Source: Thermoplasmatota archaeon (GTDB lineage: Archaea > Thermoplasmatota > E2 > DHVEG-1). Taken from it: a stretch of 64,000 nucleotides of DNA. The position numbers were made by a program, and so were the translations under genes. Under the pieces are notes generated by a model. That model was not told where the DNA came from. It worked only from the letters and a program-made list of their open reading frames with translations, and made no database searches. The stretch covers positions 197,722-261,721 of the forward strand of contig JAOZSQ010000001.1 in the NCBI GenBank assembly GCA_029939595.1, written 5' to 3'. Positions 38,064-56,658 of the stretch are shown here, one piece after another (position 1 is the stretch's first letter; each line of letters begins with the position of its first letter).

Positions 38064-39560
38064 ATGACAACAATTTTAAGATATCCATTAGAACCAGAAG
38101 TGGCGGATGCTTATCCTCATTTAAAATTTGAGGCATTTACTTATGGTATGCCCAAACCGGATGGATCTTCTGGAAACGAGTCAAGTACACAGGAGAAGGA
38201 AGGTGTAATGTTGAAAGTAGGGGCTAAGTTGGTTGAGATACGAACTTATATTCCGCCTAGTGCAATGAAAAATGCTGTAAGTTCTGATTGGCAATTGGAA
38301 GATGCTATGTTGGTTGGTAGTAAAACATTGGATCAATTAACAAGTTTTAAAGGAATAGTAGATTTAGCGGAAGGATTTGTACAATCAATTGATTTATCTG
38401 GAATGGCACAAACATTAGTAAATAACAATAAATATATTAAATTAGGTGCAGGGTTTATGAATACCATTTCTTCCTCAATGGGTAAGACTCAGATGCCTAG
38501 TAAAATTCCTATTTTTAAAGGTACTCAATTACATAATCCTCAATTTCAATTTGATTTTGATCCTTATAGTTTGAATGAAGCGAAAGAGGTTAATACAATA
38601 GTGAAGATGTTTGAAGCATTAGCAAAACCAATAATGAACAAAATGACATTGGCAAAATTGGGTGCTGCATTTGGTACTAGTGGTCCTATGGGCGCACTTA
38701 TAAAAAAGGCAACAAGTTATTTAACCAGGGGTATTATATTTTTAGATTTTCCACCTTTATGGAAAATTACTGTAATGGATGGTTCTAGTAGTGATCCAGT
38801 TACCAATTTTATGTATGATAAATCGGATTATTATGCAATAACAACTGTTGATTCAACAGCGGGTGAAGGTGCTGAATATAATTATTTTCATGGAAAAGCA
38901 AAATATCCAGTTAAAACAAATTTAAGTGTTACATTTCAGTCTATGTATCCACCACGACACAAAGACAAACAACCAAGTAAAGCGGATAGTTGGCCTGGAG
39001 GCGCAAAGGAAAGATGGCCACAAATAGTGAAACATATTGCGACATTATATGAAGGAGGAAATACTACTGAAACAATGACGAATAAAGGTATTGCTTCGGT
39101 TACTAGGAGATTGCCAAGGTCAACATCTCAATATAGGTCAAGAGGTGCAAATACATCAACCCCAACTGCTGGAACTAATACTTCAAGTGGAGCTAATCAA
39201 GGTGGAGCTAATCAAGGTGGAGCTAATCAAGGTGGAGCTAATCAAGGTGGAGCTAATCAACCAAATGCTAATCAACCAAATGCTAATCAACCAAATGCTA
39301 ATCAACCAAATACGGGTGCAGGAGCTACAGCCCAACAAGGTGATGGTACTACTCAAGAACAGAATCAGCAACCAAATCCTGATAATAATCCAGTGGTTGA
39401 TCAAGCGAATGCAAATGCTGCAAATACGGCAAAAGGTAGAACAACAAGTTATTCTTCAAGTTCGGGTTCAAGTGATGAAGAAATGAGTGCTGAAGAAGCT
39501 AAAGCTAAAGCTAAAGAGGCTGCTCTTGAAGAAGCTTGGAGAAATCAAACTGGTATGTAA
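38064..39560 (+). CDS. tail/baseplate protein following the tape measure (possible Mu gp43-like), with GANQ/ANQPN tandem repeats and an acidic tail
   Basis: Position. N-terminal YPHLKFEAFTYGMPKP loosely resembles Mu gp43 HLQPASFRGVPF. Repeats at 39189-39312. Confidence 0.35.
   Translation: MTTILRYPLEPEVADAYPHLKFEAFTYGMPKPDGSSGNESSTQEKEGVMLKVGAKLVEIRTYIPPSAMKNAVSSDWQLEDAMLVGSKTLDQLTSFKGIVDLAEGFVQSIDLSGMAQTLVNNNKYIKLGAGFMNTISSSMGKTQMPSKIPIFKGTQLHNPQFQFDFDPYSLNEAKEVNTIVKMFEALAKPIMNKMTLAKLGAAFGTSGPMGALIKKATSYLTRGIIFLDFPPLWKITVMDGSSSDPVTNFMYDKSDYYAITTVDSTAGEGAEYNYFHGKAKYPVKTNLSVTFQSMYPPRHKDKQPSKADSWPGGAKERWPQIVKHIATLYEGGNTTETMTNKGIASVTRRLPRSTSQYRSRGANTSTPTAGTNTSSGANQGGANQGGANQGGANQGGANQPNANQPNANQPNANQPNTGAGATAQQGDGTTQEQNQQPNPDNNPVVDQANANAANTAKGRTTSYSSSSGSSDEEMSAEEAKAKAKEAALEEAWRNQTGM
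39189..39312 (+). repeat. in-frame 15-bp tandem repeats (ggagctaatcaaggt x5; gctaatcaaccaaat x4)
   Basis: Direct inspection. Confidence 0.7.
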
Positions 39561-39570
39561 GGAATAAATT

Positions 39571-40095
39571 ATGGCAAAATATAAAACATTTTCATTTATG
39601 GATCAGTTCTTTCCTACAACGATTGATCTGACCGATTTTATTAAAAAATTTTCAACCGATGAATATAAGATAGAATTTAGTAACTATCAACCATTGGTAG
39701 TTACCACAGTAAATCTTTTTGAACAGATTTCTTTTGATTTTAAAAAATCCGCTCAGAATATAGCTTTTGAACATTATGTTATTCAAGAAGGTGAGAAAAT
39801 AGAAGCAGTTGCTAGAAAGTTTTATGGTGATAATGATTATTGGTGGGTTATTATCTTATTAAATGAGATGAAGGTTCCACTTTTTGATTGGCCAATGAAT
39901 GACGATCAACTCAAAGAACTTTCAGCTTTGCTAGTTAAAAAAGAGAATAAATATACATATAAGACTTATTATAAGCTTTTATTTGAACAAAACGAAGATA
40001 AAAGGGCGATTATTTTATTGAAACCTCAACATGTGGATTCTTTGGTTGAGGCTTTTAGATCTTATTTTTATGAAATTCAAGGAATTCGGATGTAA
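39571..40095 (+). CDS. LysM-like tail protein X family
   Basis: HYVIQEGEKIEAVARKFYGDNDYWWVIILLNE parallels P2 gpX ALQGDTLDAICVRYYGRTEGVVETVLAANP. Confidence 0.55.
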   Translation: MAKYKTFSFMDQFFPTTIDLTDFIKKFSTDEYKIEFSNYQPLVVTTVNLFEQISFDFKKSAQNIAFEHYVIQEGEKIEAVARKFYGDNDYWWVIILLNEMKVPLFDWPMNDDQLKELSALLVKKENKYTYKTYYKLLFEQNEDKRAIILLKPQHVDSLVEAFRSYFYEIQGIRM

Positions 40096-40098
40096 ATC

Positions 40099-41469
40099 AT
40101 GGCTGAAAGTAGTTCTCCAGATATTAATTTTTCCATTGTTGGTATAGTTATTGGCGGTGAAGATAGAGGTGTTATTATTAACCCCAAAGACAGTCCAATT
40201 GAAAGGTTGGAATTCTTTGAGAGTTTAACTTTTCCAGGAATTACTGGAAATTTGGTTTTTAAAGATGATCAAGGTGCATTGGAATTAGGAAACAAAGCCG
40301 GAGCGTTGGTAACGGCTGGAGATGAAATTATGATAAGTTTCCGAGCCAAAGAACAATCGCCTATTACAGTTAAATATACTATTTATGCTATTCAAGAAAT
40401 GCCAATGACGAGTGCAAAAGCAATTCTTTCTAGTGTTTCTTTTTGTTCTACATGGGTTTATGAAGCCTTTACACGTAAAGAACCGATTAAATTTTGTAAT
40501 GATGAAGAACCTTTTACTATTAGCTCTATTGTAAGTAAAATTATTAAGGAATGTGGAGGTGAGACTAAAAATTCAACTACTCCCTCTATTATTAAAAAAA
40601 CATTAGATAAACAGATTGAAAGATTTCTTTCACCTTTTTGGACACCAATACAAACAATTAAATATTTTATGGATTTTGCTTTAAGTCAGGATACTTATGG
40701 TGGATATGTTATTTGGACCAATTTTAAACAACCAACTCCAGGAAAAGAAATAGTTAATTTTGCACCCATTTCTTATTTTTTTGGTGATGAAAAAGAGAAT
40801 GATGATGAGGGATTACCAAAGGGTTCTTCAATGTGTAAAGGCATTTTGAGAATTGGTGGAGAAAATCCAGATGCTAGTCAAAACGATATAAAATCATTCA
40901 ATCCAGAAAAAGGCGTAGATGATTTTAAATTTGCTAATTTGGGGGCTTCTAATTCAAAAATTTGTGGTTTTGATTTTGATAGGACAAAACGGGTGGAAAT
41001 TGATACCGGATTATTAAATTATAAACACCCTCATTTTGGCACCAAATTCCCTCTTATAAAGAAATTTAATAAAACGGAATATCGGAGTATTAAACAAACT
41101 ACTTTGTACCCTCAGACTACGTATTTGATTGAAAATGAGGAAAATGTAAAGGACATGTTGAAGGGAAAATTATTTACTAAATATTCTTTATTATTTGCAG
41201 ATTTTTTTGTTATAAATGTCCAGTTATTTGGTGAAATGACTGATCGGGAAGTTGGGAAAAAGATCATGTTATTGGTTCCTTCTATTGATGAACATATGAA
41301 AGGTAAACCCAACAGGAAATATAGTGGAACCTATATTATAAGAAATATAAGGCATGTAATGGCATCAGGAAAATATTATCATTTTGCAACTTTAATATCG
41401 GATGGTTATAAAGAAATCCAAGACGGAGCGGAGGACCCTGATTTGACTTTGATGAGGTGGAAAACATAA
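40099..41469 (+). CDS. baseplate hub candidate (P2 gpD / Mu gp44 position)
   Basis: Gene order TMP-(gp43-like)-X-hub-spike. No motif-level confirmation. Confidence 0.4.
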   Translation: MAESSSPDINFSIVGIVIGGEDRGVIINPKDSPIERLEFFESLTFPGITGNLVFKDDQGALELGNKAGALVTAGDEIMISFRAKEQSPITVKYTIYAIQEMPMTSAKAILSSVSFCSTWVYEAFTRKEPIKFCNDEEPFTISSIVSKIIKECGGETKNSTTPSIIKKTLDKQIERFLSPFWTPIQTIKYFMDFALSQDTYGGYVIWTNFKQPTPGKEIVNFAPISYFFGDEKENDDEGLPKGSSMCKGILRIGGENPDASQNDIKSFNPEKGVDDFKFANLGASNSKICGFDFDRTKRVEIDTGLLNYKHPHFGTKFPLIKKFNKTEYRSIKQTTLYPQTTYLIENEENVKDMLKGKLFTKYSLLFADFFVINVQLFGEMTDREVGKKIMLLVPSIDEHMKGKPNRKYSGTYIIRNIRHVMASGKYYHFATLISDGYKEIQDGAEDPDLTLMRWKT

Positions 41470-41777
41470 TGTTACAAAAAGAAATAGCTTTATTTGATAA
41501 TAATATAACATTAGAAGGAATATATATCGGTGAGGTGATAAGTGGTAAAGATCCAAAAATGAGGGGAAGAGCTTTAGTACGTATAATTGGGTTGCATGAT
41601 TTTGAAGACGAGGACGAATCTAATAGTATTTGGGCTGAAATGTGTAGTCCAACCCAACATGGTTTTGAGGCACCGGAGATTGGGAATTTTGTTTATATAA
41701 TGTTTCGTAGTAAGTTTGACCCAAGTTCGGCAATTTATTTGGGTTATGTTAATAGTAATTTTGTGGATGGCATATAA
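41457..41777 (+). CDS. central spike N-terminal OB-fold domain protein (gpV / gp5 N-terminal-like)
   Basis: GIYIGEVISGKDPKMRGRALVRI......SIWAEMCSPTQHGFEAPEIGNFVYIMFRSKFDPSSAIYLGYV matches the gpV/gp5 OB-domain pattern (G.V...D....RvrV......S.W.r...p.aG...g....PevGdeV.V.F..GD...P...G). Confidence 0.6.
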   Translation: MENIMLQKEIALFDNNITLEGIYIGEVISGKDPKMRGRALVRIIGLHDFEDEDESNSIWAEMCSPTQHGFEAPEIGNFVYIMFRSKFDPSSAIYLGYVNSNFVDGI

Positions 41778-43390
41778 TGGCAGAAAAAACGGCAGAAGAG
41801 TGGGAAACCCTTTGGGGTAAACGAATGTACGGAGAGTCAAATCTTCCAAGATATAATCAAGTAAATTATATTTTGAAGGAGACTACAGGGGATAGGTATG
41901 TCACTCGTGCGGCGACAGAGAAGATACGAATGACAAGTCCAGGTAATTTGGCTGAAGTAAAAGATGCTGAAGATGTAATGTTGATTAATGTCAAATATAG
42001 TTTGGCAAAAGGCGAAACAAAGGCAGTTGTTCTTAAACCAAGTTCGGTTACATTGAAAGAGAAGGCGGGAACCGGTAACTTAGGAGTTTATGAAAATGTA
42101 AAAACTATTTTTGATACACCGGAGGGGTTTGTTTTTTATATTGACAGATCAAAAAACGAGTTTGAAACGGGGGATTCGGGTAAGAATAGGAATTATAGGA
42201 TTTATTTAAGGCATCCAGCGGGAACTTATGTTAATATTGCCGATTCGGGAGAATATACCAGAAAAGTAATGACCAATTCATTTGATTTTATTACTGGTGA
42301 TATGAATATTGGTGTTAAAAAGAATTACAATTTGGTTGCTGATGAAGAGATTAGAATAAATGCTGGAAGACATCATTATTTATCAATTGCTGGAAATAGT
42401 GTTTATGATACAAAAGGTAGACTTTATATAAGTGCTGGTGGTAATATGCTTTCACATTGTCATGCTGATTCAAGGGAAATAGTTGATGGTGCAAAGATGG
42501 GTTTTTATGGTTCAGATTTATATCAAGAGGCTTCGGGTATTATTACCATTTATGGTAAGAAGAAAGTTATTATTAAAACAGACGAATTAGAAGATCATTC
42601 AAATAGAAAAATATTAAAGATTAAAGGTAATATTAAGGAGACTGTTGCGGGTCATAGAACGATAGGATCTGATCAAATGACAATTACTTCAACTGGTACT
42701 GGTGGTTCGTTTAATGTGATGTCTGGTGGTAAGTATACTGCGGTTGTTCAAGGAGCGTATCAACAAGAGATTATGAACATGTATCCTTATCCTGAGTTAC
42801 CTTATTCGTTTTCAAGGAAGTTGACTGCTGGCGGGAAGAAAGAGGATTTTGTGTTGCCGTGTATGGTTGACAGAAATTTCATGTTAGCAACAGCTTGTAC
42901 AGATACATGGTTATTAGCAGGAACTTATAAAGCCAATTTTTTAGTAGCTGGTTCTTGGGCTGTTGAGACAACTTTGGGTACGATTGATTTGAAAACTAAA
43001 GTTGGTAAAATTGGTATAGAAGCGTTGGTTGGCGAAGTAAAAGCATCTAATAAAATTGGTGAAGTAAAAATTGATGCATTGGGAAATGTTCAAATGAAGA
43101 ATAAAGGTGGTGAAATAAAGGTTCATTCGCCATTACCAGAAATTGAGTTAAAGAATAAATCTAAAGGGAAAATAAAGATAGATATGATGGGTAAGATAAA
43201 AATGGAAGCATCTATACCGATGAAAGGAATTGAGTTGGGTAAAGCAACAAAAGACCAATCGGTTTATGGGAAATTGCTTATAAAATATTTATCAACACAT
43301 TTTCATGGAACAGGTGTTGGACCAAGTTCACCACCGGTTGTTCCACCAAATCCGATGGAATTGTTGAGTAAGTTGGTTTGGATTGAATAG
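41777..43390 (+). CDS. central spike beta-helical / apex protein (separate gene, coupled TAATG to the OB-domain gene)
   Basis: Repetitive Gly/Val-rich beta-strand periodicity. C-terminal THFHGTGVGP (HxH) resembles the metal-binding apex of gp5/gp138-type spikes. Confidence 0.45.
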   Translation: MAEKTAEEWETLWGKRMYGESNLPRYNQVNYILKETTGDRYVTRAATEKIRMTSPGNLAEVKDAEDVMLINVKYSLAKGETKAVVLKPSSVTLKEKAGTGNLGVYENVKTIFDTPEGFVFYIDRSKNEFETGDSGKNRNYRIYLRHPAGTYVNIADSGEYTRKVMTNSFDFITGDMNIGVKKNYNLVADEEIRINAGRHHYLSIAGNSVYDTKGRLYISAGGNMLSHCHADSREIVDGAKMGFYGSDLYQEASGIITIYGKKKVIIKTDELEDHSNRKILKIKGNIKETVAGHRTIGSDQMTITSTGTGGSFNVMSGGKYTAVVQGAYQQEIMNMYPYPELPYSFSRKLTAGGKKEDFVLPCMVDRNFMLATACTDTWLLAGTYKANFLVAGSWAVETTLGTIDLKTKVGKIGIEALVGEVKASNKIGEVKIDALGNVQMKNKGGEIKVHSPLPEIELKNKSKGKIKIDMMGKIKMEASIPMKGIELGKATKDQSVYGKLLIKYLSTHFHGTGVGPSSPPVVPPNPMELLSKLVWIE

Positions 43391-43594: not shown

Positions 43595-43638
43595 TATAAA
43601 TAGTGTTATATTTGTTAATTTTAAAAAAGGAGAAAATT

Positions 43639-44139
43639 ATGTTTAGATTTTTTATGGTTTTGTCATTTTTACTTATTCCATTTGTTTGTTTTGCTGAAGC
43701 AGCCCAACAGTCAATGGGAAATACACTTGTTGCTGTCGTATCAGTAATTGCAACGGTTGCAGCACTTATTATTGGTTATCTTGGCAAGTTTGGTTTGGTT
43801 AATCCACAAAAAGCAGCCGAATTAAAAGGAAAATTGGATGCTGCGGAAAAGATGGTAAAAGATGGTGCAGAGGCAATTGACAAGGTTGTTGATACTGTTG
43901 AAAAGTTGGGACTTGTTGATAGTGCTAAAATAGATGAAATAACCAATTCTGTAAGTGAGTTAGATCTTGTGGAAAAGGCACAACAAACTGAAAAATTAGT
44001 TCAAGAAGGAGCTAAAGTTTTGGATGATGTTCTTGAGGTTGTTGATAAGATTGGGACACCGAATGCCGATATTGTTGGAACAGCAAATGAGTTAAGTAAA
44101 GCAGCAGGAAACTTTTTATCTGGCAAGTTAAAAATTTGA
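43639..44139 (+). CDS. secreted/membrane-anchored coiled-coil protein (start moved to ATG 43639 with AAGGAGA SD; the track start 43603 is GTG)
   Basis: MFRFFMVLSFLLIPFVCFA signal-like segment, then TM helix LVAVVSVIATVAALIIGYLG. Confidence 0.4.
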   Translation: MFRFFMVLSFLLIPFVCFAEAAQQSMGNTLVAVVSVIATVAALIIGYLGKFGLVNPQKAAELKGKLDAAEKMVKDGAEAIDKVVDTVEKLGLVDSAKIDEITNSVSELDLVEKAQQTEKLVQEGAKVLDDVLEVVDKIGTPNADIVGTANELSKAAGNFLSGKLKI

Positions 44140-44453: not shown

Positions 44454-45122
44454 ATGCCTGTATCACTATTTGGGGGTCTTAAAACTTTTTTTGAAGCTTT
44501 ATATTCGGATGTTAAAAGTCCATGTATGTTGAAATCTTTGAATGCTGCAACTACATTTGCAACAGAAGTACATAAAACTTTAACAACATGTCCTGTTATG
44601 GGTGTAATAGCAGGAACCGTACCTGCTGCTCCTGCTCCTTATGCTGGAGTATTTACTCGCCAACCTTTACCAAGTGATTACGTACAAGCAGCTTTATTTG
44701 CTAAATTGAAAGATGGTTTAGAAGGTAGTTGGTGTAATAGTGCTAATCAAGTTATAACAGCAGCGTTAGGAGAAGCTATGGCCTATGATGATGCTTGTTG
44801 TGCTTATTTACAAACCCAATTAGTTTTGGTTGCTCCAGGAAATTGTGGTGGTCATGCTGGTTCTCCTATTACTGCACCTGGACCGGCTCCAATGATTTTA
44901 ATGGCTTGCCAGATGTTGACTACAATGGGTCAGTATGCCGATTTAAAAGGTCCGCCTGGAACTCAAATTCCCAAAGCAGCAAAAATGGCTGGTGATTTTG
45001 AAAAAGCATTTAAAGCATTTATGGCGGTTCAAGCTTCATTGAGTGTTGGAGGAAGTGTTGGTTTGGGTCCTCCTGGTGCTCTTGGTGCTGGTATTACTGT
45101 TACTACTGTTATTGCGGCTTAA
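44454..45122 (+). CDS. GC-rich Ala/Gly/Pro-rich cysteine-containing protein (222 aa)
   Basis: SD GGAGTAG. Composition shift. At least seven Cys. Confidence 0.4.
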   Translation: MPVSLFGGLKTFFEALYSDVKSPCMLKSLNAATTFATEVHKTLTTCPVMGVIAGTVPAAPAPYAGVFTRQPLPSDYVQAALFAKLKDGLEGSWCNSANQVITAALGEAMAYDDACCAYLQTQLVLVAPGNCGGHAGSPITAPGPAPMILMACQMLTTMGQYADLKGPPGTQIPKAAKMAGDFEKAFKAFMAVQASLSVGGSVGLGPPGALGAGITVTTVIAA

Positions 45123-45173: not shown

Positions 45174-48100
45174 ATGACGTGGGAAAAGAAAGAATTTACT
45201 ATTGAGTTACTAGCAGATCCAAAAGTATCTCAATTATTAGATAAGCTTGAAACGCTAGGTGAAACAATAGTAACAATTGGTGAGATCATCAAAGCTCTTG
45301 CCGAACTCTATAAAATTTATCTTCTTAGTAGTATCAATCCTATCCTTGCTGCACTATATCTTCTTATTAAATTAATAAAAGAATTTATTGAAAGTCTCAA
45401 TCAAGTGGCTGTTCATGGTATTATTATGCTTCCTGGTTTAACTGGTGGATTGGGAACATTTTATACGTTTGGGGAGTTGAAATTAATGTATACTCCAAAG
45501 GTTTTTGGGGTTGAACAAGGAAATAGGAAAAAAGTTGAGCGTTTTATTGATGGTGCCGGATGGAAAGATTGGATGGAACCTGCATCAATTGAGTCTCTCA
45601 AATCAAAGTTAGTAGAACAATATGTTAATCATGGCTCTTCTATTTTTAATGTTCAGTCTGTTATTCAAGAGAATGGACGTTCAAAAGTGGCGGTAACGGA
45701 GGCTAACCGATGGTTGGATGCCAAATCAAAACAATCAGGTGAAGGTATATGGTTTTGTAATAAAGATGAACTTGGAGCGGCTTTTTTAGATTCTTTTACT
45801 GATTCTGAAGATCCATGTAGACCTAAAATGGATGATCATAGAATGTCATCTTCTTTAACCTTGTTTTTTGGAATAGGAGGAAAACTTGAAGCTATAAAAA
45901 TAGATGAAATTGTTGATTTGATTAATAAGGTTATGAAGTTGATTGGTAAACTAATGGATATGGACAGTTTTACCAAAGCAGCCGAGGCTGAAATCAAGAA
46001 AATGGAGACTACCTATAAGAAAATGCAAGGTAAAGATGCTCTTGAAATTCAGTACGAAAAAGATACGAAAGAAATGGAGGAGCGTCACGCTACAGAAATT
46101 GCTACTGCTAAAGGCGAAGGGGTGATGGATGAGAAGACCAAAGATGCGGATGGTCAGGAAATCACAAAACGAAAGTGGATGGAAAATCAAAGGAAAATAA
46201 TTGATAAAGATAATTGTTTACCATCTGCTGATGCCGAGGAATTTGAAGAACTTGCTCCTCAAGATTATGCTACACCGGTTACTTATTATGTTGAAGGTGT
46301 TAGATTAGATTCTGATGCTGATGATGAATGGGCTGGTAGCGAAATGACTGTACTTCAAAAGTCAGAAAATGGACAATTATCCCCACCTAAAACTAAAGCT
46401 GAAGCCGATAAACAAAAGAAAGCAATAGATATAGCGAAGAAAAAAAGGCAAACAAAAATTGACACATTAGAAAAAACAAGAAAAGCCCTAGAGAAAACAG
46501 AAAAAGCAGCAGCAGCCCAAGGTGCAAAAGATTTAGAAGCAATGAGAAAACGCCATAAGGCTGAAAAGAAGACTTTAGATGATAAATTTGCTGCTGACCA
46601 AAAAGCCAAAATAGCCAATGAACAAGCTTCAAAGAAAGCCGATGTTAAAAAAGAGTTAACATTAGAATCATTAGAAAATTCCTTGTTTGCTGGTGATTGG
46701 GTATCCTATCCCCTACTTCCTGATCTTATGCCATTTGTAGAACCAATTTTTGCCCAAATTTATGCCTATTTGGATGGTATGGCAGAATTGATTGCTGGTG
46801 CTGTTGCAATGATAGATGCTATGATAGCTTTGTTGGATGAAAAAATAGCAATAGTTAAAGAAATATTAGCTATTATTAAATTATTAAAAGCTTTAATTTC
46901 TGCATTAAATTCATTAAAAGGTGGAGCAGGTATTTATTGTCATTATCTCCCAATGGCTCCAGGAGGGGCAGCACGACTTAAAAGTAGTATTGGTACTGCT
47001 TGGGAAGAGTTACCAGCAATTTATAGTGAACCGATTAGTATATGTGGATGTCTTTGTTTTTGTGATATGGGTCCAGGAACGGAGTTACTTGCATTTGTTC
47101 TTGGTTTAAAACCCAATTATAATCCATTGGATTATATTGCTATTTGGTTCAGTTATATTGAAGATTTAATGAAGATTCGTGAAGTTGGAATGGGAATTTG
47201 GGATAAATTAATGAATGCCATTCAAGGTGCTATGAATCTTTTGAATGATACTTTAGCCGCTCTTGAAGCTATTTTAGCTCAATTAAAAAAGATAATCAGT
47301 ATTACTAAAGATATTTTAAAGGATATAATTAGTGTTGTTAAACATCCAGTTGATTTGCAAGGAAAAGCAGCCATTAAAGGTAAGTTGGGTGATAATAGAT
47401 TGGGGGCACTATCTCCTAAAGAAAAAGAAGTACAAATTGGTCAGTTACAAGACGAAATAATTGAAGAAGATTTTAAAGAGTTGTCGGATGCCGAGGTTGA
47501 GGAAAAGTCAAAAGAGAAAGTCGGTGCTGAATATGATGATATGACAGATAATGAAAAAGAAGATTTAAAAGAAGATTTAAAAGAGGATATGAAAATTGAT
47601 AAATTCAGTGACATGTCTGAAGAGGAAATGGATGATTTATTAAAAGAAAAATTGGGTGAAGAAGCATTTAATGGTCTGTCAGATGAAGAGAAGGATTTTG
47701 TTTTTCAAGATATTTTAAATGAGAAAATGGATAGTGCGTTGGATAAACTTGAAATGGAATTAGCAGGATCTCTTGAATTTAAATCTCCAAAAGCAGTTTC
47801 TATTATTGAAAGAGATGTTGATGGTGATAAAGAGAAAGTTAATGTATTACTTAAAGAATTGAAAAAAGATATATTATCCGATTTAACAGAACTTGGAAGA
47901 GACGTTGCTGAGAAAGTAATAGATAAACTGGAGAAGGTTATCAAACAAATGCTTGAGGATACTAAAGAAGACAGTTTGATGATGCAACAGTTGTTAAAAG
48001 ATATGCTTCATGAATGTTTTCTTAAAGTATTCTCGTATTTAAATAAGCAAAAATTGATAGATATTTTGTTGATTTTGATAAAAGGATGTTTGGATGATAT

Positions 48101-50504
48101 TCCAATAGATATGCTCAAGGCATTATTACCAAATTTACCAGATGATATATTAAAAGATCCTAAGAATATTGCGAGATTGTTAAATGCTCTGACTATTGAT
48201 GAATTAAAAGATTTATTAAAGAACTTTTTTGAGAATTTTGAGAATTTGAGTTTAGATGATCTTCCTAAAGGCATGTTATTAGCTCTTTTAGCTTTACTTA
48301 CTGATGAAGAATTGGCTGCTTTGCTTGATAGATTAAGTGATGATATATTGAACAAACTCAAAAATTTATTGTATAAAAATCCAGATTTACTAGCAAAATT
48401 ATTGGGAAAATTATCACCGGAGTTTTTATCATGGTTCTTTCAACAGTTTCCTTATGATTATATAAAGAACTTTTTTATAAGTTTAGTGAATTGGTATTGT
48501 GAAAATGATATGAAATTCTTTATATCGCTTATTAGTTACATATCATATAGTTTCTTATATACTATGAATAGTTATATGACTGTTTATATTATGAGAAGTG
48601 TTTTTACAAGAGTTAGTTATAGGGTTTTAAGAACTGTTATGGTTCGTATGAGAAGAATAGAGATACGTTATTTGCCTAAAGATATTTTAATAACCATATT
48701 GCAGCAATATCCTAGTCAAGTAATGCGTTATTTTCCAACCTCTGTTACCAGAAGATTGATGAATTCAGTTCCCCAGGAAAATAGAGAACAGATTAGCAAA
48801 CAGTTATCAGAAGGCGATTTAAAAAAAGTGTTGGGAGAAGTTCTCCAGGATGTTGATTATAGTGTATTACAAAGTATTTTTGATCAAATTCCTGTTACGA
48901 TTATTAGAAGATCCATGCAACGTCTGAGATTGGTTCATTATAGAAGAATTATTCAATATCTTTCATACGAAACAATGACATATTTGTTTAGTTATTTTAC
49001 ACAATATTATTTCTATTCAATGCCTATTTATTTAACTCAACAAATAATGATAAGTATTATTCAGTGTTTTCCGTATACGTATTTTATAGATTTAATTTAT
49101 CACATATTTACTAGTATTCCAAAAGATATGTTATTAAAGACGCTTACAATGTGTCTTCAACAAGGATTTTTTGATGATTTATTAGGTAAAATAACTCCTG
49201 AAATGATGTTGAAATTATTGAAAGAGTTGGATAGGGATACCCTATTGGAGTTGTTTGGTGAACTCTCAAAAGAAGATCTTTTGGATATGTTGAAAGGACT
49301 TATGCCTGATATACTCACTCCTGAAAGGCTTAAAGAGCTTTTAAGAGAGTTGGCTATGTTCTATTTAAGGAAAATATTAAAATGTACTATGATAGATGAA
49401 GTTGATGAAGAGGTTATAGATGAATTATTGAAGCATTTTAATATGGCACAATTAATTGAATTGTTAATGAAGCGAATTGGTGATTGTAAGAGTAAGGTTG
49501 TGGAGTGTATTCCAGAAGAGTTACTTGAGTTGATTGGTAGTCAGATGGATATTGCTGATTTAAAGGATAAATTGTTAAATCGGTTATCGGATGATGATAT
49601 TCGGGATTTGTTTAAAGATCTTACAGATGAACAATTAAAAGCGTTATTTGATTCGTTTGAAAGAAACATATTGGAAAAGATAGATGCTGTTATTGTAGAT
49701 GCATTGTTAGATGATAAGATACCAACAGAAGTGATGGAAGGTATAATTGAGATAGCATTAGACGAATTTAGAATAGTTTTTTGTGAGGTGCTTAAACAGA
49801 TAGATATTAGAACTATTGAAATAATGATAAAGTTATTGTCGGATGAGGATACTCGTGAACTTCTTAAAATGGTACTTTGGGATAATATTAAGTATATTCC
49901 AGAACAAATTTATCTTAATTTTTTGAGAAAATTCAAGACGCAAGAATTGAAAAAATGTTTTGAAAGAATGAGTGAGGAAGAGTATAAGAAAATGTTCGGG
50001 GAACTTGGACCAGAATCATACGCTAAAATATTTGAAAGATTAAATGATGATGAAGAAACATTGAATTTATTAATAGAGGAACTTACAGATAGACTTGAGA
50101 TTTCAATATTTGAAGAACTTGTGAAAGCGGTTCCTTCTCCAATGTTTGATACTATTGCTGAAGAAAATCAACATGTGGTTTTCTCTTATATTTTTAAGAA
50201 AATGCAATCTAAAATTTCAATTCCTTTGTTAAGAAAAGTTTTTACCTCATTAACTGATGAAATGAGAAGAGAAGTTTTAGACCCCTTGTTTTTCAGTGAA
50301 CATTATACTATACTAGAGGAAATTTCACAAGAAACATTAAGTGTTTTGTTTTGTCATGCGGATAAGGAATATTTTCATGATGATATTATTACTGATTTGA
50401 CAAAGGAAACTGTACGAGTTTTCTTATTAAGTATTTTAGATAACACAGATCTTACATTAACAGATCCGATTATTGAAATGTTGTTCAAATCGCTATTTTT
50501 ATAA
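45174..50504 (+). CDS. giant (1,776 aa) alpha-helical protein with three regions: N-terminal coiled coil, hydrophobic core segment, C-terminal Leu-rich helical repeats
   Basis: Long ORF with SD. Composition and repeat inspection. Confidence 0.5.
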   Translation: MTWEKKEFTIELLADPKVSQLLDKLETLGETIVTIGEIIKALAELYKIYLLSSINPILAALYLLIKLIKEFIESLNQVAVHGIIMLPGLTGGLGTFYTFGELKLMYTPKVFGVEQGNRKKVERFIDGAGWKDWMEPASIESLKSKLVEQYVNHGSSIFNVQSVIQENGRSKVAVTEANRWLDAKSKQSGEGIWFCNKDELGAAFLDSFTDSEDPCRPKMDDHRMSSSLTLFFGIGGKLEAIKIDEIVDLINKVMKLIGKLMDMDSFTKAAEAEIKKMETTYKKMQGKDALEIQYEKDTKEMEERHATEIATAKGEGVMDEKTKDADGQEITKRKWMENQRKIIDKDNCLPSADAEEFEELAPQDYATPVTYYVEGVRLDSDADDEWAGSEMTVLQKSENGQLSPPKTKAEADKQKKAIDIAKKKRQTKIDTLEKTRKALEKTEKAAAAQGAKDLEAMRKRHKAEKKTLDDKFAADQKAKIANEQASKKADVKKELTLESLENSLFAGDWVSYPLLPDLMPFVEPIFAQIYAYLDGMAELIAGAVAMIDAMIALLDEKIAIVKEILAIIKLLKALISALNSLKGGAGIYCHYLPMAPGGAARLKSSIGTAWEELPAIYSEPISICGCLCFCDMGPGTELLAFVLGLKPNYNPLDYIAIWFSYIEDLMKIREVGMGIWDKLMNAIQGAMNLLNDTLAALEAILAQLKKIISITKDILKDIISVVKHPVDLQGKAAIKGKLGDNRLGALSPKEKEVQIGQLQDEIIEEDFKELSDAEVEEKSKEKVGAEYDDMTDNEKEDLKEDLKEDMKIDKFSDMSEEEMDDLLKEKLGEEAFNGLSDEEKDFVFQDILNEKMDSALDKLEMELAGSLEFKSPKAVSIIERDVDGDKEKVNVLLKELKKDILSDLTELGRDVAEKVIDKLEKVIKQMLEDTKEDSLMMQQLLKDMLHECFLKVFSYLNKQKLIDILLILIKGCLDDIPIDMLKALLPNLPDDILKDPKNIARLLNALTIDELKDLLKNFFENFENLSLDDLPKGMLLALLALLTDEELAALLDRLSDDILNKLKNLLYKNPDLLAKLLGKLSPEFLSWFFQQFPYDYIKNFFISLVNWYCENDMKFFISLISYISYSFLYTMNSYMTVYIMRSVFTRVSYRVLRTVMVRMRRIEIRYLPKDILITILQQYPSQVMRYFPTSVTRRLMNSVPQENREQISKQLSEGDLKKVLGEVLQDVDYSVLQSIFDQIPVTIIRRSMQRLRLVHYRRIIQYLSYETMTYLFSYFTQYYFYSMPIYLTQQIMISIIQCFPYTYFIDLIYHIFTSIPKDMLLKTLTMCLQQGFFDDLLGKITPEMMLKLLKELDRDTLLELFGELSKEDLLDMLKGLMPDILTPERLKELLRELAMFYLRKILKCTMIDEVDEEVIDELLKHFNMAQLIELLMKRIGDCKSKVVECIPEELLELIGSQMDIADLKDKLLNRLSDDDIRDLFKDLTDEQLKALFDSFERNILEKIDAVIVDALLDDKIPTEVMEGIIEIALDEFRIVFCEVLKQIDIRTIEIMIKLLSDEDTRELLKMVLWDNIKYIPEQIYLNFLRKFKTQELKKCFERMSEEEYKKMFGELGPESYAKIFERLNDDEETLNLLIEELTDRLEISIFEELVKAVPSPMFDTIAEENQHVVFSYIFKKMQSKISIPLLRKVFTSLTDEMRREVLDPLFFSEHYTILEEISQETLSVLFCHADKEYFHDDIITDLTKETVRVFLLSILDNTDLTLTDPIIEMLFKSLFL

Positions 50505-50511
50505 GGAATAT

Positions 50512-53500
50512 ATGGCATCAATTAAAGAAGAAAAAAATAAGTGTAAAACAACAATACGAAGTGGTGCAATGGGTGTTGTTGATGGACGAATAATAATGAT
50601 TGATAGGATAGAAACATTCAATGAATTTCTTCCTAAACTTTTGCCCTTATATAATGATACCTATTCTTGGATAACTAAATTTGGGCAGATGCGAAACCTA
50701 TTAAGAGGTTATGAAAATCCCAACGATTCACTTCACACATTCAATATATCTTCCAGAAAAAATGTGGTTCCTCATTATTTTACTCTTCCAAAATGTAATT
50801 CTTTTTGTTTCAGTTCTTTTGATAGTCCAGATTTATACACCGCAGGACCATATGTTTTAACCACAGAAGAAGCAACAAAATGTTATGTAACTGTGAGACG
50901 TAAAGATAATAAAATAGTTGTAACTCAAGATGAAGACCATTTGGATGCATGGTATACACCAGAATTAATAAAAGATTTTAGATTTCAAGTTGGTTCTTGT
51001 GAACAACTTGTAACTGTATTTGAGAAAAAAATAGAAACGAAGAATAAATTCTTTTTTACAAAAATTGTATTGATGAAAGATAAAAAAGAAATAAAAGATT
51101 TGGGTTCTTTTGATGAAAATGGTAAATTTGTTCATCCAGATATAGATTATGAGAATACTGTTTTTAGTGAAACTCTAACAGAAAAAAATATAAAGGTGGT
51201 ATTTAAAAATGCAATAAATGATGATGTTACTGTAGCCATAAAATATAGAATAGTTCAAAAGGAAATTAGTGAAGGTGTTGGAACTTTAAATGAACTGGAA
51301 AAAGGGGAAACATTTACTTTTAAATTGGGCACTGATCCAGTAAAAGGCACAATAAAAGTGTTATTGGGAGAAGAAATAATAGGAACGATAGATGAAAAGG
51401 GGTTTGTATCGGGTTCTCTTGTTGAAAAAGATTCTAGTTTCAATGTTAATAATAATACGTTGTATTTGGTGTTTGATAAAAAATATAAAGCAGGAAAAAT
51501 GGATAGTGTTTTTGTTAAATATGAAATTTTTACACCGGATCAGTATGTAGAAGTTGGTAATTTTTCTATTTTACCAAAAGAATTTGAAATGGATTTGCAA
51601 CATGATACAATAATCAAAGGAACTAGTAAAATTTACAAAGAATATGACGATGATAATGTTGTTTATTTGGGTTCGGTTGATGAGAATGAAAATGTTATTG
51701 CAACAAATGAACTATTAGATGCAACTGCTTGTGTTTTTGATACTAAAACAAAGAAGTTAAAAATAGTTTTAAAAGAAACTGAAAATATAGATTATGATAT
51801 TGCTTTACGTTATAATTTTCTTGATCAATATCATGAATGGCATAAAGACTTTTTTCAGGTAGCATTTACAGTTGAATCAATAACTTATTTGGGTAATAGG
51901 CAAATGTCTTTTATGAGATTGAATCTTGATAAACCGATTGATTATATGTTTCCAACTGAGCCAAAGAATGAATCGGATACACCATTGGTTGTAGAAAGAC
52001 CAATGTTGGGTTCAAGTTTCCAGGTGAATAGTATTGAAACAAGGAAAATTGTTGCTAGGATTCAAGTGTTAGCTGAAGGATTGGAGTTGAATCATGGTTG
52101 GCATATAATTAAAGATAGAGAGTTTGATTGTACTTCTGTTAATAAGGTTGGTTTTAGAAAATTGGCGAATTTAATCAATTTTGAGATTGTGAATAAGGAT
52201 GATATTTATAAAGCAATACTTGCTTTGTCATATCCATTAAATGCAGAAGCAAACCCATTTTATCCTATGAATGAGGGAAAATGGTTGTTGCCCAATCCTT
52301 TTTTTGGTAAGTATATAAGGTACGTTCCTTTGATAGATATACAGTTGGCTGAGAAAGCTAATCAACCCGCAGATGTTGTTGATTTTGATTTTATTGCTGA
52401 TAATTTATTGTCACCTATATGTTTATCTCATACCGATTTGAGATGGATGGCAGAACGATTTGATTATAAAATTGATTGTAGGGAGGCTATTAACGCCAAT
52501 CTGAAGAGTTATGGTTGGAAAACTTATGAAGAGATGCCACCCGAAGCAAAACCTTATTATTTTCCTTTATTTAAAGAAGAAATATTACAAGATAAGGAAG
52601 AAGCTTTGTACCATACCGATTTAAAGTATAATGTGATTGATAAATTTAGCAAACGGCATGATACTTATATTATGGCTCAACTTCAAAAGATTGTCGGTTT
52701 TGCATTTGAAGATCCTCTTCCATCAATAGATTTTGCTATTGAAGAAGAAACATATATTGAAAATAAAGTTGGTGAAGAGCAAGATTTTGATGCATATTTT
52801 GAGAAAAATAATGAGCGAATTGAAAACAATGAAGGTCCAGATCCATTGGTTAATTGTATGTTCTTGAATTCGGGAATTACAGATGCTAAGAATAAGGAAA
52901 AAAGTAAATTTGTGACTTTATTGGAAGAAGAAATGTTCGTTGGATTGACTTTAGACGAACCAGCTATTTCCTTATTGGAAATACCTCATTTATGCAGAGA
53001 AGAAATTGAAGAAATAATTGCTGATAAAAATTTGGAAGCCTGGAGAGCAGATATAGAGGGTTGTTCAACCAAAGAAGAGTTTGTTAGGTTGCTATCAAAA
53101 CTTATTGTTATGAGATTAACTGACGATGAATTTGTCTCATTTATAGATCATAATAATTTGTTTATAAATCCCAATGCTTTTATAGATAGTGAACGGACAG
53201 AGAAGGAGGGATTGACACGTTATCGGGTAGGAGAACTACAACATACAATATTACAAGAATTGGGTTTGGCGGGTGCATTGAGGCATATATCATTTGAAGA
53301 AATTGAATATCTTGATGTAATTCAGCTTGAGCAAATGTTGAAAGATCGGGGTTATGTTTCTTTTAAAGATAAGTATATGGAAAATTGGGAAGGCGATCCG
53401 ATGCCGGAGGATTTGAGTAAATTAGAATATGTAGAACAATACTTTTTAAATGAAAAACAATATAGACATGCAGTTAAAAAAATATTGAAGTATACACATA

Positions 53501-54549
53501 AGGATATATTACCATCTTATTGGGTTGAAGAAGATAGAAAATGGCCTGGAGAAGATTTAACAACGGAAGTAAACGTAACCAAACAATTAAGACAAGAATG
53601 GGAAGATTATCATAAAAGATTCAATGAAGTAGATTTAGATAATTTATATGAAAGGATAACTGATTGTAAAAATATTATTAAATCTAAAAGAACCGTTGCT
53701 CGTAGTAAAGTCACAAAATATAACACTGCTATTACTGCTGAAGAAACTGCGAAAACGGGAGTTGTAAATGCCATGAAAAGTGCAATAGTTGTTAAAAAAC
53801 AAGAATTGGAAGTAGCTCGTCAAAAAGTACGGACAGCGGAAACGAATTTGGAAAATGCTAAGAAAGCGAGAGATACTGCACAAATCAATAGAAATAACGC
53901 TGCTGCAAAGGTTCCTCCTGCTGAACAGGCTGTGATTGCTGCCGAACCTCCAGTTGTTGCACAACAACAAGTTGTAACAACCAAACAAGTTATTTTTAAT
54001 CAAAAAGCGGAAGTTGTAGTAACCAAACAAGGCATTGTAACAGATAAACAAGGAATTGTAACAGATAAACAGGGTATTGTGGCGAATAGACAGGTTGTTG
54101 TAGAAGCGAAACAGGCTGATCTTGATGCTATAGAAGAAGGTGGAGATACAACTACTGCCGAAACAGAATTAACTACTGCCGAAACAGAATTGACTACTGC
54201 CGAAACAGAATTGACTACTGCCGAAACAGAATTGGCTATTGCCGAAACAGGTTTGGTTACTGCTAAAACTGAAAAAACATCGGCTCAAACCGTTCTTACA
54301 ACTGAACAGGGCAAATTAACTACGTTGCAAAATACGTTGAATACTAAAAAGGCAGCATTGACAGCAGCCCAAAATACATTGAAAGCGAGGGAAACCGATC
54401 TCACAAATGCCAAGAATCTTGTAATACAGCGAGAACAAGAATTACAAGTAGCAAGAGATAATGAAGCAATTGCAGTTAAAAATCTTTTAGATACTGAGAG
54501 AGATAGAGATATCTTATCAGGAATAATTAAGAAAACAATACAGGTATAA
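50512..54549 (+). CDS. giant (~1,347 aa) protein with C-terminal coiled coil and TTAETEL / GIVTDKQ tandem repeats (start moved to the ATG with AAGGAA SD)
   Basis: Long ORF. 21-bp repeats at 54031-54252. Confidence 0.5.
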   Translation: MASIKEEKNKCKTTIRSGAMGVVDGRIIMIDRIETFNEFLPKLLPLYNDTYSWITKFGQMRNLLRGYENPNDSLHTFNISSRKNVVPHYFTLPKCNSFCFSSFDSPDLYTAGPYVLTTEEATKCYVTVRRKDNKIVVTQDEDHLDAWYTPELIKDFRFQVGSCEQLVTVFEKKIETKNKFFFTKIVLMKDKKEIKDLGSFDENGKFVHPDIDYENTVFSETLTEKNIKVVFKNAINDDVTVAIKYRIVQKEISEGVGTLNELEKGETFTFKLGTDPVKGTIKVLLGEEIIGTIDEKGFVSGSLVEKDSSFNVNNNTLYLVFDKKYKAGKMDSVFVKYEIFTPDQYVEVGNFSILPKEFEMDLQHDTIIKGTSKIYKEYDDDNVVYLGSVDENENVIATNELLDATACVFDTKTKKLKIVLKETENIDYDIALRYNFLDQYHEWHKDFFQVAFTVESITYLGNRQMSFMRLNLDKPIDYMFPTEPKNESDTPLVVERPMLGSSFQVNSIETRKIVARIQVLAEGLELNHGWHIIKDREFDCTSVNKVGFRKLANLINFEIVNKDDIYKAILALSYPLNAEANPFYPMNEGKWLLPNPFFGKYIRYVPLIDIQLAEKANQPADVVDFDFIADNLLSPICLSHTDLRWMAERFDYKIDCREAINANLKSYGWKTYEEMPPEAKPYYFPLFKEEILQDKEEALYHTDLKYNVIDKFSKRHDTYIMAQLQKIVGFAFEDPLPSIDFAIEEETYIENKVGEEQDFDAYFEKNNERIENNEGPDPLVNCMFLNSGITDAKNKEKSKFVTLLEEEMFVGLTLDEPAISLLEIPHLCREEIEEIIADKNLEAWRADIEGCSTKEEFVRLLSKLIVMRLTDDEFVSFIDHNNLFINPNAFIDSERTEKEGLTRYRVGELQHTILQELGLAGALRHISFEEIEYLDVIQLEQMLKDRGYVSFKDKYMENWEGDPMPEDLSKLEYVEQYFLNEKQYRHAVKKILKYTHKDILPSYWVEEDRKWPGEDLTTEVNVTKQLRQEWEDYHKRFNEVDLDNLYERITDCKNIIKSKRTVARSKVTKYNTAITAEETAKTGVVNAMKSAIVVKKQELEVARQKVRTAETNLENAKKARDTAQINRNNAAAKVPPAEQAVIAAEPPVVAQQQVVTTKQVIFNQKAEVVVTKQGIVTDKQGIVTDKQGIVANRQVVVEAKQADLDAIEEGGDTTTAETELTTAETELTTAETELTTAETELAIAETGLVTAKTEKTSAQTVLTTEQGKLTTLQNTLNTKKAALTAAQNTLKARETDLTNAKNLVIQREQELQVARDNEAIAVKNLLDTERDRDILSGIIKKTIQV
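54031..54252 (+). repeat. two sets of in-frame 21-bp tandem repeats (ggcattgtaacagataaacaa x3; actactgccgaaacagaattg x~5)
   Basis: Direct inspection. Confidence 0.7.
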
Positions 54550-55792: not shown

Positions 55793-55861
55793 TATGAAAA
55801 GATTGATTTATGATAATGTAAAAAACATTAATTTTATTTTAGATAGGAAATTAGGATAAAT

Positions 55862-56056
55862 ATGGAACAAGAAAAAATGAAATATTGGAAAACAAATCAG
55901 GATATGGATTTTTCAGGTTTGGAATTTTATTTAAAAATGCTTGAGGATTCAGCAAATTTAATCACTAAAGCTTTTAATATACAAAAGGACCAGTTAACGC
56001 TTATAAGAAAGGAAGCAGTGAAAAGGGAACAGAGTGAACAAGGGAGAGGTTTATAA
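55862..56056 (+). CDS. small hypothetical protein
   Basis: ORF with SD. Confidence 0.3.
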   Translation: MEQEKMKYWKTNQDMDFSGLEFYLKMLEDSANLITKAFNIQKDQLTLIRKEAVKREQSEQGRGL

Positions 56057-56658
56057 TGGCTGAAGAAGATAGTTATCCTTTCAAATATGCCGATGACGAA
56101 GGTATTGATGAAGTTGTAAAATTCAATGAAGATGCTAATGTAGAGGTTGCAATTCTCTTTGGTTCCCCATTTTATTATATCAAAAGGGAAATAGCTGGTA
56201 CTGAGCCTGTGTTTGGAGAACATTTGCATAATGTATTGAGGAAAGCTGTCAAGATAAATTTTATTGTAGAGAATCCAAACGATGATTTGGAGATGGAGTC
56301 TATGTATACCAAGTTTGGTGTGAAGGTTGAGGCTGCGGATATGACTTTGTGGGGTGTTAAACGGTTATTGGCAGAGAAAGGAGTTGTTCCAAAAGAAGGT
56401 GATTTAATTTGGTATCCCCGTTTAAAAAAACTATATGAAGTATCTTTAGTTGATTTGAAGGAAAATATAAAATATAAGATATTATGTTCGTTGCATACAC
56501 CTGATCACACAGAAATTGAAGAAGATTTCAACATACCGGCTATCAAGGACAAACTTGAAGCGTTGGATGATGTTGAACAAGCCAACTTTTTTGATCCGAT
56601 TGATGGTTTGAAGAATGAGTTCATTGATGATGCAGAAGTGGACCCGTTGGCTTTTTAA
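56056..56658 (+). CDS. acidic hypothetical protein (200 aa)
   Basis: ORF with GAGAGG SD. Confidence 0.4.
   Translation: MAEEDSYPFKYADDEGIDEVVKFNEDANVEVAILFGSPFYYIKREIAGTEPVFGEHLHNVLRKAVKINFIVENPNDDLEMESMYTKFGVKVEAADMTLWGVKRLLAEKGVVPKEGDLIWYPRLKKLYEVSLVDLKENIKYKILCSLHTPDHTEIEEDFNIPAIKDKLEALDDVEQANFFDPIDGLKNEFIDDAEVDPLAF

Follow-up and report, generated by a model that had tools for sequence, protein, structure and literature searches.

The described proteins that come closest, in gene position and general character, to those considered here are the peripheral and fibre proteins of the T4 baseplate (gp7, gp10, gp12 and fibritin, or wac), which are large, modular and variable between lineages and are encoded between spike and neck genes. 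For huge phages, with genomes of over 200-400 kb, most tail genes are unannotated and, to our knowledge, the phages themselves are known almost only from metagenomes; large tail proteins lacking annotation are to be expected in them. Here we analyze a stretch of 64,000 nucleotides, hereafter called the window (contig JAOZSQ010000001.1 of assembly GCA_029939595.1, filed under a Thermoplasmatota archaeon; positions 197,722 to 261,721, forward strand), in which two giant consecutive genes, hereafter p1 and p2, are located downstream of a gp5-like spike gene. The contig from which the window is taken has 426,929 bp and about 32% G+C, and belongs to a phage with a T4-like contractile tail.

The results of our analysis indicate that p1 and p2 are not isolated oddities, since both appear to be expanded versions of a conserved module adjacent to the spike gene. 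By the alignments described below, p1 is an extreme size variant of an undescribed protein family, and both family and module appear new to the libraries searched (Pfam, PHROGs and PDB).

A protein family with a core that is split in p1

The family was found when 1.84 billion representative proteins were scanned in full with HMMER, the query being residues 1-270 of p1 joined to residues 1-930 of p2. Three proteins were retrieved through the p1 part, namely P0004 (449 residues, E 6.6e-9), P0005 (469 residues, E 7.7e-5) and P0006 (399 residues, E 1.2e-4), each of which aligns to p1 twice, with residues 1-270 and with residues 505-700 approximately. Both blocks were recovered independently by BLASTP and phmmer; in the case of the second block, BLASTP aligned positions 516-659 of the p1 stop-to-stop frame (about p1 506-649) with residues 299-450 of P0005, encoded in locus L003, at E 1e-6. 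After profile searching the family has at least 55 members (labelled P0004-P0060), for which there is no Pfam, PHROG or PDB entry, and a profile built without P0007 still retrieved this protein with E 2.9e-15. The family hidden Markov model (HMM), which included p1, spans residues 11-710 of the p1 stop-to-stop frame (p1 1-700) with E 2.8e-137. Members other than p1 have 399-902 residues, mostly 700-770; all are unnamed and none carries a Pfam domain. Their contigs reach 441 kb, with one more member in a 485-kb GenBank 'uncultured phage'. At 1776 residues, p1 is about twice as long as the next-largest member. Its regions, all on the + strand, are as follows.

45174-50504, +, p1, 1776 residues, ATG start
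45174-45983, +, p1 residues 1-270, N-terminal core block with a small insert at about 110-195 (HMMER and alignments)
45984-46688, +, p1 residues 271-505 approximately, Lys/Glu-rich helical insert (position of the alignment gap and composition)
46689-47273, +, p1 residues 506-700 approximately, C-terminal core block (BLASTP and alignments)
47274-47813, +, p1 residues 701-880 approximately, helical and then acidic linker, 25-31% Asp/Glu, present only in p1 within the family
47814-50501, +, p1 residues 881-1776, Leu-rich helical repeats with MgtE_N as best Pfam match, present only in p1 within the family

Conserved residues are found in both core blocks. The N-terminal block of p1 contains W3, N55-P56 and the motif FTDxxDxxRP (D210, D213, R216 and P217), which are invariant across 5-sequence alignments, while the invariants of the whole family comprise an N-terminal Trp, an Asn-Pro pair within a hydrophobic helix pair, the motif F(T/S)DxxDxxRP, and Trp, Pro and Gly residues in the C-terminal block. 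The hydrophobic N-terminal helix of p1 (residues 47-69) reaches 1.9 on the Kyte-Doolittle scale in a 19-residue window, and this hydrophobicity is retained in the family, 43 of 53 members reaching 1.6 or more. The C-terminal block of p1 includes the conserved W and P, a long hydrophobic helix, a 'P..GG..LK' motif and a strand bearing the cluster CGCLCFC; its Ala/Ile/Leu-rich segment, residues 535-579, is followed by ISICGCLCFCDMG. The N-terminal transmembrane-like helix, the hydrophobic Ala/Ile/Leu segment and the CGCLCFC cluster had already been listed in the initial annotation, which a model made from the sequence of the window, and all three are indeed present. Together they appear to form the conserved core of a single family, which is split in p1.

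Structural models were obtained with AlphaFold2. That of the p1 core, computed from a 5-sequence alignment, has a predicted local distance difference test score (pLDDT) of 43 and is unusable, while that of P0007, computed from a 53-sequence alignment, has a mean pLDDT of 75.7, with the region of about 220-600 (an insert) modelled confidently and the family core at 50-75. Because both models predict, at low confidence, a core of alternating strands and helices plus a helix of about 50 residues, its hydrophobic stretches are more likely to be buried strands and helices than membrane spans. The transmembrane-like helix and the CGCLCFC cluster of the earlier description are thus real, whereas the helix would belong to this core instead of being a free-standing membrane anchor.

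The variable site of the family lies between the two core blocks. The core of p1 is interrupted there by its Lys/Glu-rich insert of about 235 residues, and members of the P0007 type have at the matching site an insert of about 400-450 residues, part of which is an FN3 domain in the model of P0007; p1 carries its helical insert in place of this domain. Phage Ig-like and FN3 domains are reportedly almost confined to virion proteins, and the FN3 domain at the variable site of the P0007 model argues for surface exposure on the particle.

The module adjacent to the spike gene

The genes that form the module in the window, with those that bound it, are the following.

41457-43390, +, gp5-like central spike in two open reading frames (ORFs) of 106 and 537 residues, upstream boundary of the module (PHROG 430, E 4e-11; phmmer against T4 gp5, E 8e-7)
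44454-45122, +, Gly/Ala/Pro-rich protein of 222 residues beginning with MPV, the conserved first gene of the module (homologue of a 200-residue protein of L003, E 2e-8)
50512-54549, +, p2, 1345 residues, ATG start
55847-56053, +, small ORF of up to 68 residues from stop to stop, resembling the small ORF just upstream of the L003 family gene (BLASTP E 5e-4; phmmer E 7.6e-5)
56056-56658, +, gp14-like neck protein, downstream boundary of the module as in L003 (PF11649, E 7.6e-11; T4 gp14, E 2e-11)

The closest relative is L003, a 97-kb T4-like contig. It shares the order of the window up to the spike, with a gp48-like gene, gp53 (37% identity), gp27 (33%) and the two parts of gp5 (42% for the N-terminal and 24% for the C-terminal one); after the spike come a 200-residue protein, a 961-residue protein, a small ORF, the family gene (P0005) and a gp14-like neck protein (25%). 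Part or all of a common order is found also in the relatives from huge phages (L005, L011, the P0024 contig, L009/L010 and L012), where a spike-sized protein of about 725 residues is followed by a protein of about 170-190 residues, a small ORF, a protein of 1961-3651 residues, another small ORF and the family gene, and then by two genes and a wedge protein of the gp6/Baseplate_J type. The spike end of the module is visible in L005, L011 and the P0024 contig, and in L005 the spike-sized protein matches the PHROG baseplate hub (E 1.8e-4); the wedge is identified in L005 (PHROG 6, E 2.9e-19) and L009 (PF04865). Proteins of 167-190 residues that resemble the 222-residue protein of the window in size and position occur in L005, L011, L012 and the P0024 contig. 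A small ORF of 46-122 residues lies directly upstream of the family gene in all other loci examined, and the large module protein varies from 961 to 3651 residues across relatives. In L002 a tail-tube gene stands next to the family gene. The window has the whole set of four components (Gly/Ala-rich protein, large protein, small ORF and family gene) and differs only in their order, namely the 222-residue protein, p1, p2, a 413-residue protein and the small ORF. The family thus has a constant place in the region of hub, spike and wedge genes, and p1 and p2 are encoded in a module that is tied to the spike gene.

Other features of these loci are worth recording. The large-protein slot holds 3651 residues in L009 (1-9645, the gene running off the end of the locus) and 3642 residues in L012 (611-11539), neither protein having a Pfam match or detectable similarity to p2. 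In the 441-kb relative L005, genes of the homing-endonuclease type, Endonuclease_7 and NUMOD3, are found among the baseplate genes near the family gene (12301-13086 and 20179-20643). The split of the spike gene is retained in L003 (4521-6369), where the N-terminal ORF has 136 residues as against 106 in the window, and the beta-helix ORF 476 as against 537; the beta-helix ORF ends with an HxH motif, then GTG.GPS and then a proline-rich stretch. The idea that the 413-residue gene is a split-off C-terminus of the 961-residue protein of L003 is unsupported (z 1.2).

Delivery with the spike, as cargo, is the main alternative to the association with the baseplate proposed below. Ejected internal proteins and host-membrane-remodelling factors were among the candidates of the initial annotation, and both are conceivable roles that our results do not support. 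The 222-residue protein, p1 and possibly p2 would then ride on or behind the spike and be delivered to the host envelope or cytoplasm on contraction, much like the effectors of type VI secretion systems whose genes lie downstream of VgrG, or like the ejection proteins of T7; the hydrophobic helices of p1 would insert in the membrane, and the site of action of its acidic and MgtE_N/FliG-like part would be the cell interior. The module does lie directly after the spike gene in every locus in which the upstream gene is identified or spike-sized, the hydrophobic N-terminal helices are conserved in the 43 of 53 members already mentioned, the partner is a Gly/Ala-rich hydrophobic protein of about 170-220 residues, and p1 is almost wholly alpha-helical, as known ejection proteins are. 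Moreover, the native location of MgtE_N and FliG domains is the cytoplasm. We nevertheless consider delivery as cargo unlikely, given that the FN3 domain of the P0007 model points to the particle surface, that the Pfam, PHROG and NCBIfam scans found no PAAR, adaptor or toxin domain, and that the lumen of the tube is presumably occupied by the 3869-residue protein encoded in the tape-measure position. Predicted strands also intervene between the hydrophobic segments, in the manner of a folded core, and the family gene is found next to wedge or tube genes too. If true, this explanation would make the module a new class of injected phage proteins. A more far-reaching version is that the module constitutes an unrecognised delivery system or 'ejectosome' of huge contractile-tailed phages, with p1 injected together with the spike, anchored in the membrane by its conserved hydrophobic helices and using its FliG/MgtE_N-like chain inside the cell, for instance to mimic or engage the partners that such cytoplasmic domains have. 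This proposal, which we rate as distinctly improbable, would provide a phage counterpart of VgrG-linked effectors built from a fold new to virions.

The acidic linker and helical extension of p1

Beyond its core, p1 has a final part of about 1080 residues without counterpart in the family. It begins with a helical and acidic linker, the acidic stretch extending over residues 740-900 approximately and the net charge being -23 across residues 701-900, and continues with Leu-rich helical repeats that reach the C-terminus and include LKALLPNLPDDILKD. When residues 881-1776 were scanned as four pieces, MgtE_N (PF03448) was the top Pfam match each time, with E 6.7e-3, 4.1e-2, 5.7e-5 and 3.6e-7. Relative to the gathering threshold of 25.9 bits, whole p1 scores 25.8 and residues 1561-1776 score 31.1, the other three segments scoring 24.0, 17.4 and 14.8. 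Weaker FliG_C matches occur in the same region, with the pattern 'LL..L..eel..ll..L'. We read residues 881-1776 as a probable chain of at least four armadillo-like helical domains of the MgtE_N/FliG type. Self-comparison by BLASTP revealed no internal repeats, and hhalign gave only weak self-matches in the tail of p1; the copies are therefore likely to be old and degenerate. The Lys/Glu-rich region (at about 270-505), the acidic stretch and the Leu-rich helical repeats that the initial annotation reported for p1 are all found in the protein. A local change of composition is also seen at residues 1100-1300 approximately (48474-49074), where the protein turns from Leu/Lys/Glu/Asp-rich to Tyr/Ser/Thr/Arg/Met/Ile-rich, with 15-17% aromatic residues and a net charge of +9 across residues 1101-1200; MgtE_N is still the best Pfam match there, a weak one.

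Helical-repeat proteins commonly act as scaffolds, a property that would suit an assembly factor outside the virion. In such a role, p1 would serve as scaffold or chaperone for a very large baseplate or for its giant partner, with its tail as an assembly platform, and would then be discarded as T4 gp51, gp57A and gp38 are. Its position in the tail module without a match to a known structural fold, and the constant pairing of the family gene with a very large neighbouring protein, are consistent with this role. The size of p1, on the other hand, far exceeds that of any known phage assembly chaperone (we know of none near 1776 residues), FN3 inserts are typical of virion proteins, and the rapid lineage-specific expansion looks like the variability of host interaction and not like a housekeeping chaperone; we therefore judge an assembly factor to be improbable.

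Domains and repeats of p2

The second giant protein can be divided into regions of different character, for which the following features (+ strand) are relevant.

51079-52101, +, p2 residues 190-530 approximately, beta-rich, with recurring module ends of the type '...V.V.Y', co-linear with residues 210-555 approximately of the 961-residue L003 protein
53629-54546, +, p2 residues 1040-1345 approximately, C-terminal coiled coil, heptad-like at 1040-1134 and 1211-1327
54009-54080, +, tandem repeat of 21 bp, 3.4 copies, encoding GIVTDKQ heptads in the coiled-coil region
54151-54250, +, tandem repeat of 21 bp, 4.8 copies that are 96% identical, encoding TTAETEL heptads

Comparison with the 961-residue protein of L003 gave a BLASTP match of E 0.002 and a Smith-Waterman score of 118, as against a shuffle mean of 47 with sd 6.4 (z 11.1; Gumbel p about 4e-7), while in 28 control comparisons with other large proteins z was at most 4.4. 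Residues 190-530 of p2, approximately, are thus homologous to the large module protein of the nearest relative. Beyond this local pairwise match, p2 has no detectable relative in the libraries or in the HMMER scan described above, in which its residues 1-930 retrieved only p2 itself. The region of residues 530-1040 approximately is mixed alpha/beta and has no match, and that of the coiled coil, which is broken by a Pro/Val/Gln-rich stretch, shows weak matches to SMC and surface-exclusion coiled coils. The TTAETEL repeats noted previously in this part of p2 correspond at the DNA level to the 4.8 copies of the 21-bp repeat. Both 21-bp repeats represent recent, register-preserving lengthening of the coiled coil.

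Possible association with the baseplate

The reading that we favour, and to which we give about an even chance, is that p1 and p2, the two large components of the conserved spike-adjacent module, are virion proteins attached to the baseplate near hub and spike. The module is encoded in T4-like and huge phages with contractile tails, which make up a deep lineage. We infer the presence of p1 and p2 in the virion, their location at the baseplate and their outward projection because the position of the module among hub, spike, wedge or tube genes is constant across very divergent phages, because a modelled relative, P0007, has an FN3 domain at its variable site, and because p2 has fibre-like features and scans of Pfam, PHROGs and NCBIfam found no enzymatic or defence domains in p1 or p2.

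The two blocks of the split core (residues 1-270 and about 505-700) would form the docking and oligomerisation unit of p1 at the baseplate, and the regions that differ from phage to phage would extend outward. In p1, the Lys/Glu-rich helical stalk and a superhelix of about 900 residues of the MgtE_N/FliG-like type, placed behind the acidic linker, may thus build a long alpha-helical arm. Its partner p2 would be fibre-like, with N-terminal beta-modules, a central globular part and a C-terminal coiled-coil shaft of about 300 residues, the length of which may be currently changing by duplication of whole heptads.

Several points weigh against attachment of p1 and p2 to the baseplate. It is gene position that suggests a docking role for the core, and the presence of family members in virions is deduced from gene context, sequences and models. 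The family core, modelled only at pLDDT 50-75 in P0007 or 43 in p1, has no fold match in the PDB or BFVD libraries, and comparison by family HMM and hhalign with 30 tail, neck and head proteins of T4 gave nothing. The gene order of the window, with the family gene followed by the large protein, differs from that of all other loci, in which the large protein is followed by a small ORF and the family gene; p2, moreover, shows no similarity to the proteins of 2000-3650 residues of the P0007 clade. The conserved hydrophobic N-terminal helix would suit a membrane-inserting protein equally well. Finally, external phage appendages are normally beta-structured, and a long alpha-helical superhelix is unusual among them.

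The tail-gene block and the reality of the two genes

A single long block of tail genes of the T4 type, all on the + strand, spans 0.4-60.3 kb of the window. Besides the genes listed above, it includes the following.

7535-10336, +, gp6-like wedge protein (PHROG 219, E 2e-69)
23573-25433, +, three consecutive tail-tube paralogues of 204, 184 and 227 residues, all matching PHROG 45
25457-26233, +, hub protein
26451-38060, +, ORF of 3869 residues in the tape-measure (T4 gp29) slot, which follows the hub gene and precedes the gp48-like tube cap
38064-39560, +, gp48-like tube cap
39571-40095, +, gp53-like protein
40099-41469, +, gp27-like hub

Both giant ORFs are real genes. At the base composition of the window a stop is expected every 12 codons approximately, and the chance of an open frame of such length is about 1e-69 for p1 and 1e-53 for p2; the codon-position GC of both genes matches that of the neighbouring tail genes, and an independent Logan assembly contains a contig with 100% identity across 14,920 bp. 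The genes of the module run in the direction of the tail genes and are tightly spaced, with gaps of 51 nt before p1, 7 nt between p1 and p2 and 1 nt between p2 and the next gene. The gap between p1 and p2 contains no terminator, and a scan for promoters and terminators gave matches no more frequent than in shuffled sequence. The longest ORF of p2 begins with TTG at 50473 (1358 residues); the ATG at 50512 is taken as its start because of the gene call in the independent assembly and of a GGA-rich ribosome-binding site. These data confirm the two giant consecutive ORFs of the initial annotation, which had given p2 a length of about 1347 residues and had placed both downstream of the spike, as the gp5-like gene at 41457-43390 bears out.

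The tape-measure slot is relevant to the function of p1, for which the role of a second tape measure, or ruler that determines how long a part of the tail or of the baseplate becomes, had been suggested. Indeed, p1 is long, helical and partly hydrophobic, and a few family members have very weak PHROG matches to tape measures (E 1e-3 to 5e-3). The gp29 slot, however, is taken by the 3869-residue ORF, the C-terminal part of which matches the same-slot protein of L003 (E 9e-8), while p1 lies 7 kb downstream of the slot, beyond the spike, and has no match to tape measure proteins in Pfam, PHROG or NCBIfam. Family members range from 399 to 1776 residues in one gene slot, a more than four-fold variation in size (with proteins of 399-470 residues in the place that p1 holds here), and their core is predicted to have mixed strands and helices instead of an extended helix. 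A ruler function of p1 is consequently very improbable. The 3869-residue ORF itself contains long arrays of helical repeats of about 40 residues and Gly-rich hydrophobic C-terminal segments, and otherwise matches only XopAD and the RcGTA tape measure, weakly; with about 1.5 A per residue, its length would correspond to a tail of some 0.5 um.

Other ORFs of the window can be noted here. At the start of the tail block, an ORF of 897 residues (381-3074, +) matches domains of the Major Vault Protein (MVP_shoulder, E 5e-18; Vault_3, E 1.7e-12; Vault, E 7.8e-4), and an ORF of 264 residues among the baseplate genes (6258-7052, +) has a strong match to Ant-type anti-repressor domains (PHROG 5817, E 1.4e-30). 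A protein of 178 residues (43603-44139, +) has an N-terminus like that of a signal peptide or transmembrane segment, is helical in the rest and weakly matches Rz-like spanins (PHROG 739, E 2e-3); L003 encodes at 12058-12483 a protein of 141 residues, with a transmembrane segment and a coiled coil, that also matches PHROG 739 weakly (E 3.5e-4) and is located after the neck gene, not after the spike. Coding strand and GC skew change sign at about 60.3 kb, and among the minus-strand genes that lie past this point is a metallophosphoesterase-like ORF at 60324-61364.

Searches of other databases

Searches with whole p1 and p2 against Pfam, PHROGs, NCBIfam and PDB sequences gave only the borderline MgtE_N match of p1 and generic coiled-coil matches of p2, and a word-indexed search with whole p1 retrieved only p1. 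When 50,697 GenBank phage records were searched by tblastn, p1, p2, the gp27-like neighbour, P0004 and P0005 had no match, and P0007 had one, in an unannotated uncultured phage of 485 kb; the phage of the window is very distant from cultured phages. In IMG/VR no match was confirmed when p1, p2, the spike, the family alignments or P0005 served as query, while a gp27 alignment found two distant loci (L006 and L007) whose downstream part is too short for the module. Nothing was retrieved by a metagenome scan with an alignment of P0004 and P0006, by a scan of GTDB genomes with p1, or from PDB sequences with a profile of the 53-sequence alignment (52 family members and p1). The PHROG scan of 53 family sequences gave four single-member matches, with E 2e-3 or weaker. 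The possibility that the family represents a divergent gp13, gp7, gp8 or wac was rejected, there being no match among the 30 T4 proteins. The earlier statement that neither giant resembles a known virion enzyme is thus borne out, as no enzyme domain was found; nor was there any confident match to a characterised family, a result that would have refuted the earlier reading, and literature searches returned no description of the module.

Significance and comparison with known systems

What had been two 'orphan giants' becomes a definable object, namely at least 55 proteins that form one family, together with a module of four genes next to the spike, found in phages from T4-like ones of about 100 kb to megaphages of 485 kb. 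The family could serve as a new annotation marker for the hub and spike region, and as a target for structural work on unassigned baseplate density in huge phages that carry the module. The module grows by several routes, with inserts at one permissive site, C-terminal extension by helical repeats and duplication of heptads, and is thereby relevant to the question of how the adsorption apparatus is scaled in phages of very large size.

Several known systems can be compared with p1 and p2. Downstream of VgrG, the spike gene of another contractile machine, type VI secretion modules also have variable genes directly after the spike gene, some of them very large; the likeness is positional only, and no PAAR, DUF4123, DUF1795, DUF2169 or toxin domains were found by Pfam and NCBIfam in p1, p2 or their neighbours of 64-222 residues. 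Tape measure proteins of the T4 gp29 type resemble p1 in being long, helix-rich and endowed with hydrophobic stretches, and differ from it in the points already discussed, namely the slot held by the 3869-residue ORF, the lack of a family match and the occurrence of members of only 399 residues in the slot of p1. Among armadillo-like helical domains of the MgtE_N (PF03448) and FliG type, MgtE_N is the best Pfam match for each of the four segments of p1 residues 881-1776, one of which is above the cut-off. These domains are normally present in single copy, in a cytoplasmic regulator of a Mg2+ channel or in the flagellar rotor, whereas p1 strings together at least four degenerate copies, three of them below the cut-off, and such a string on a protein encoded in a tail module has no counterpart in the libraries and literature searched.

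With respect to the peripheral proteins of the T4 baseplate, p1 and p2 differ in that phmmer and hhalign revealed no resemblance in sequence between them and the tail and neck proteins of T4, in that the wedge genes gp6 and gp53 are identified elsewhere in the window, and in that p1 is alpha-helical, not beta. The long coiled coil of p2 resembles that of fibritin, from which p2 is distinguished by the C-terminal location of the coiled coil and the lack of a foldon-like end, a reverse layout (phmmer of p2 against wac, E 0.35). In place, size, modularity and variability between lineages, the two giant proteins are similar to the T4 periphery.

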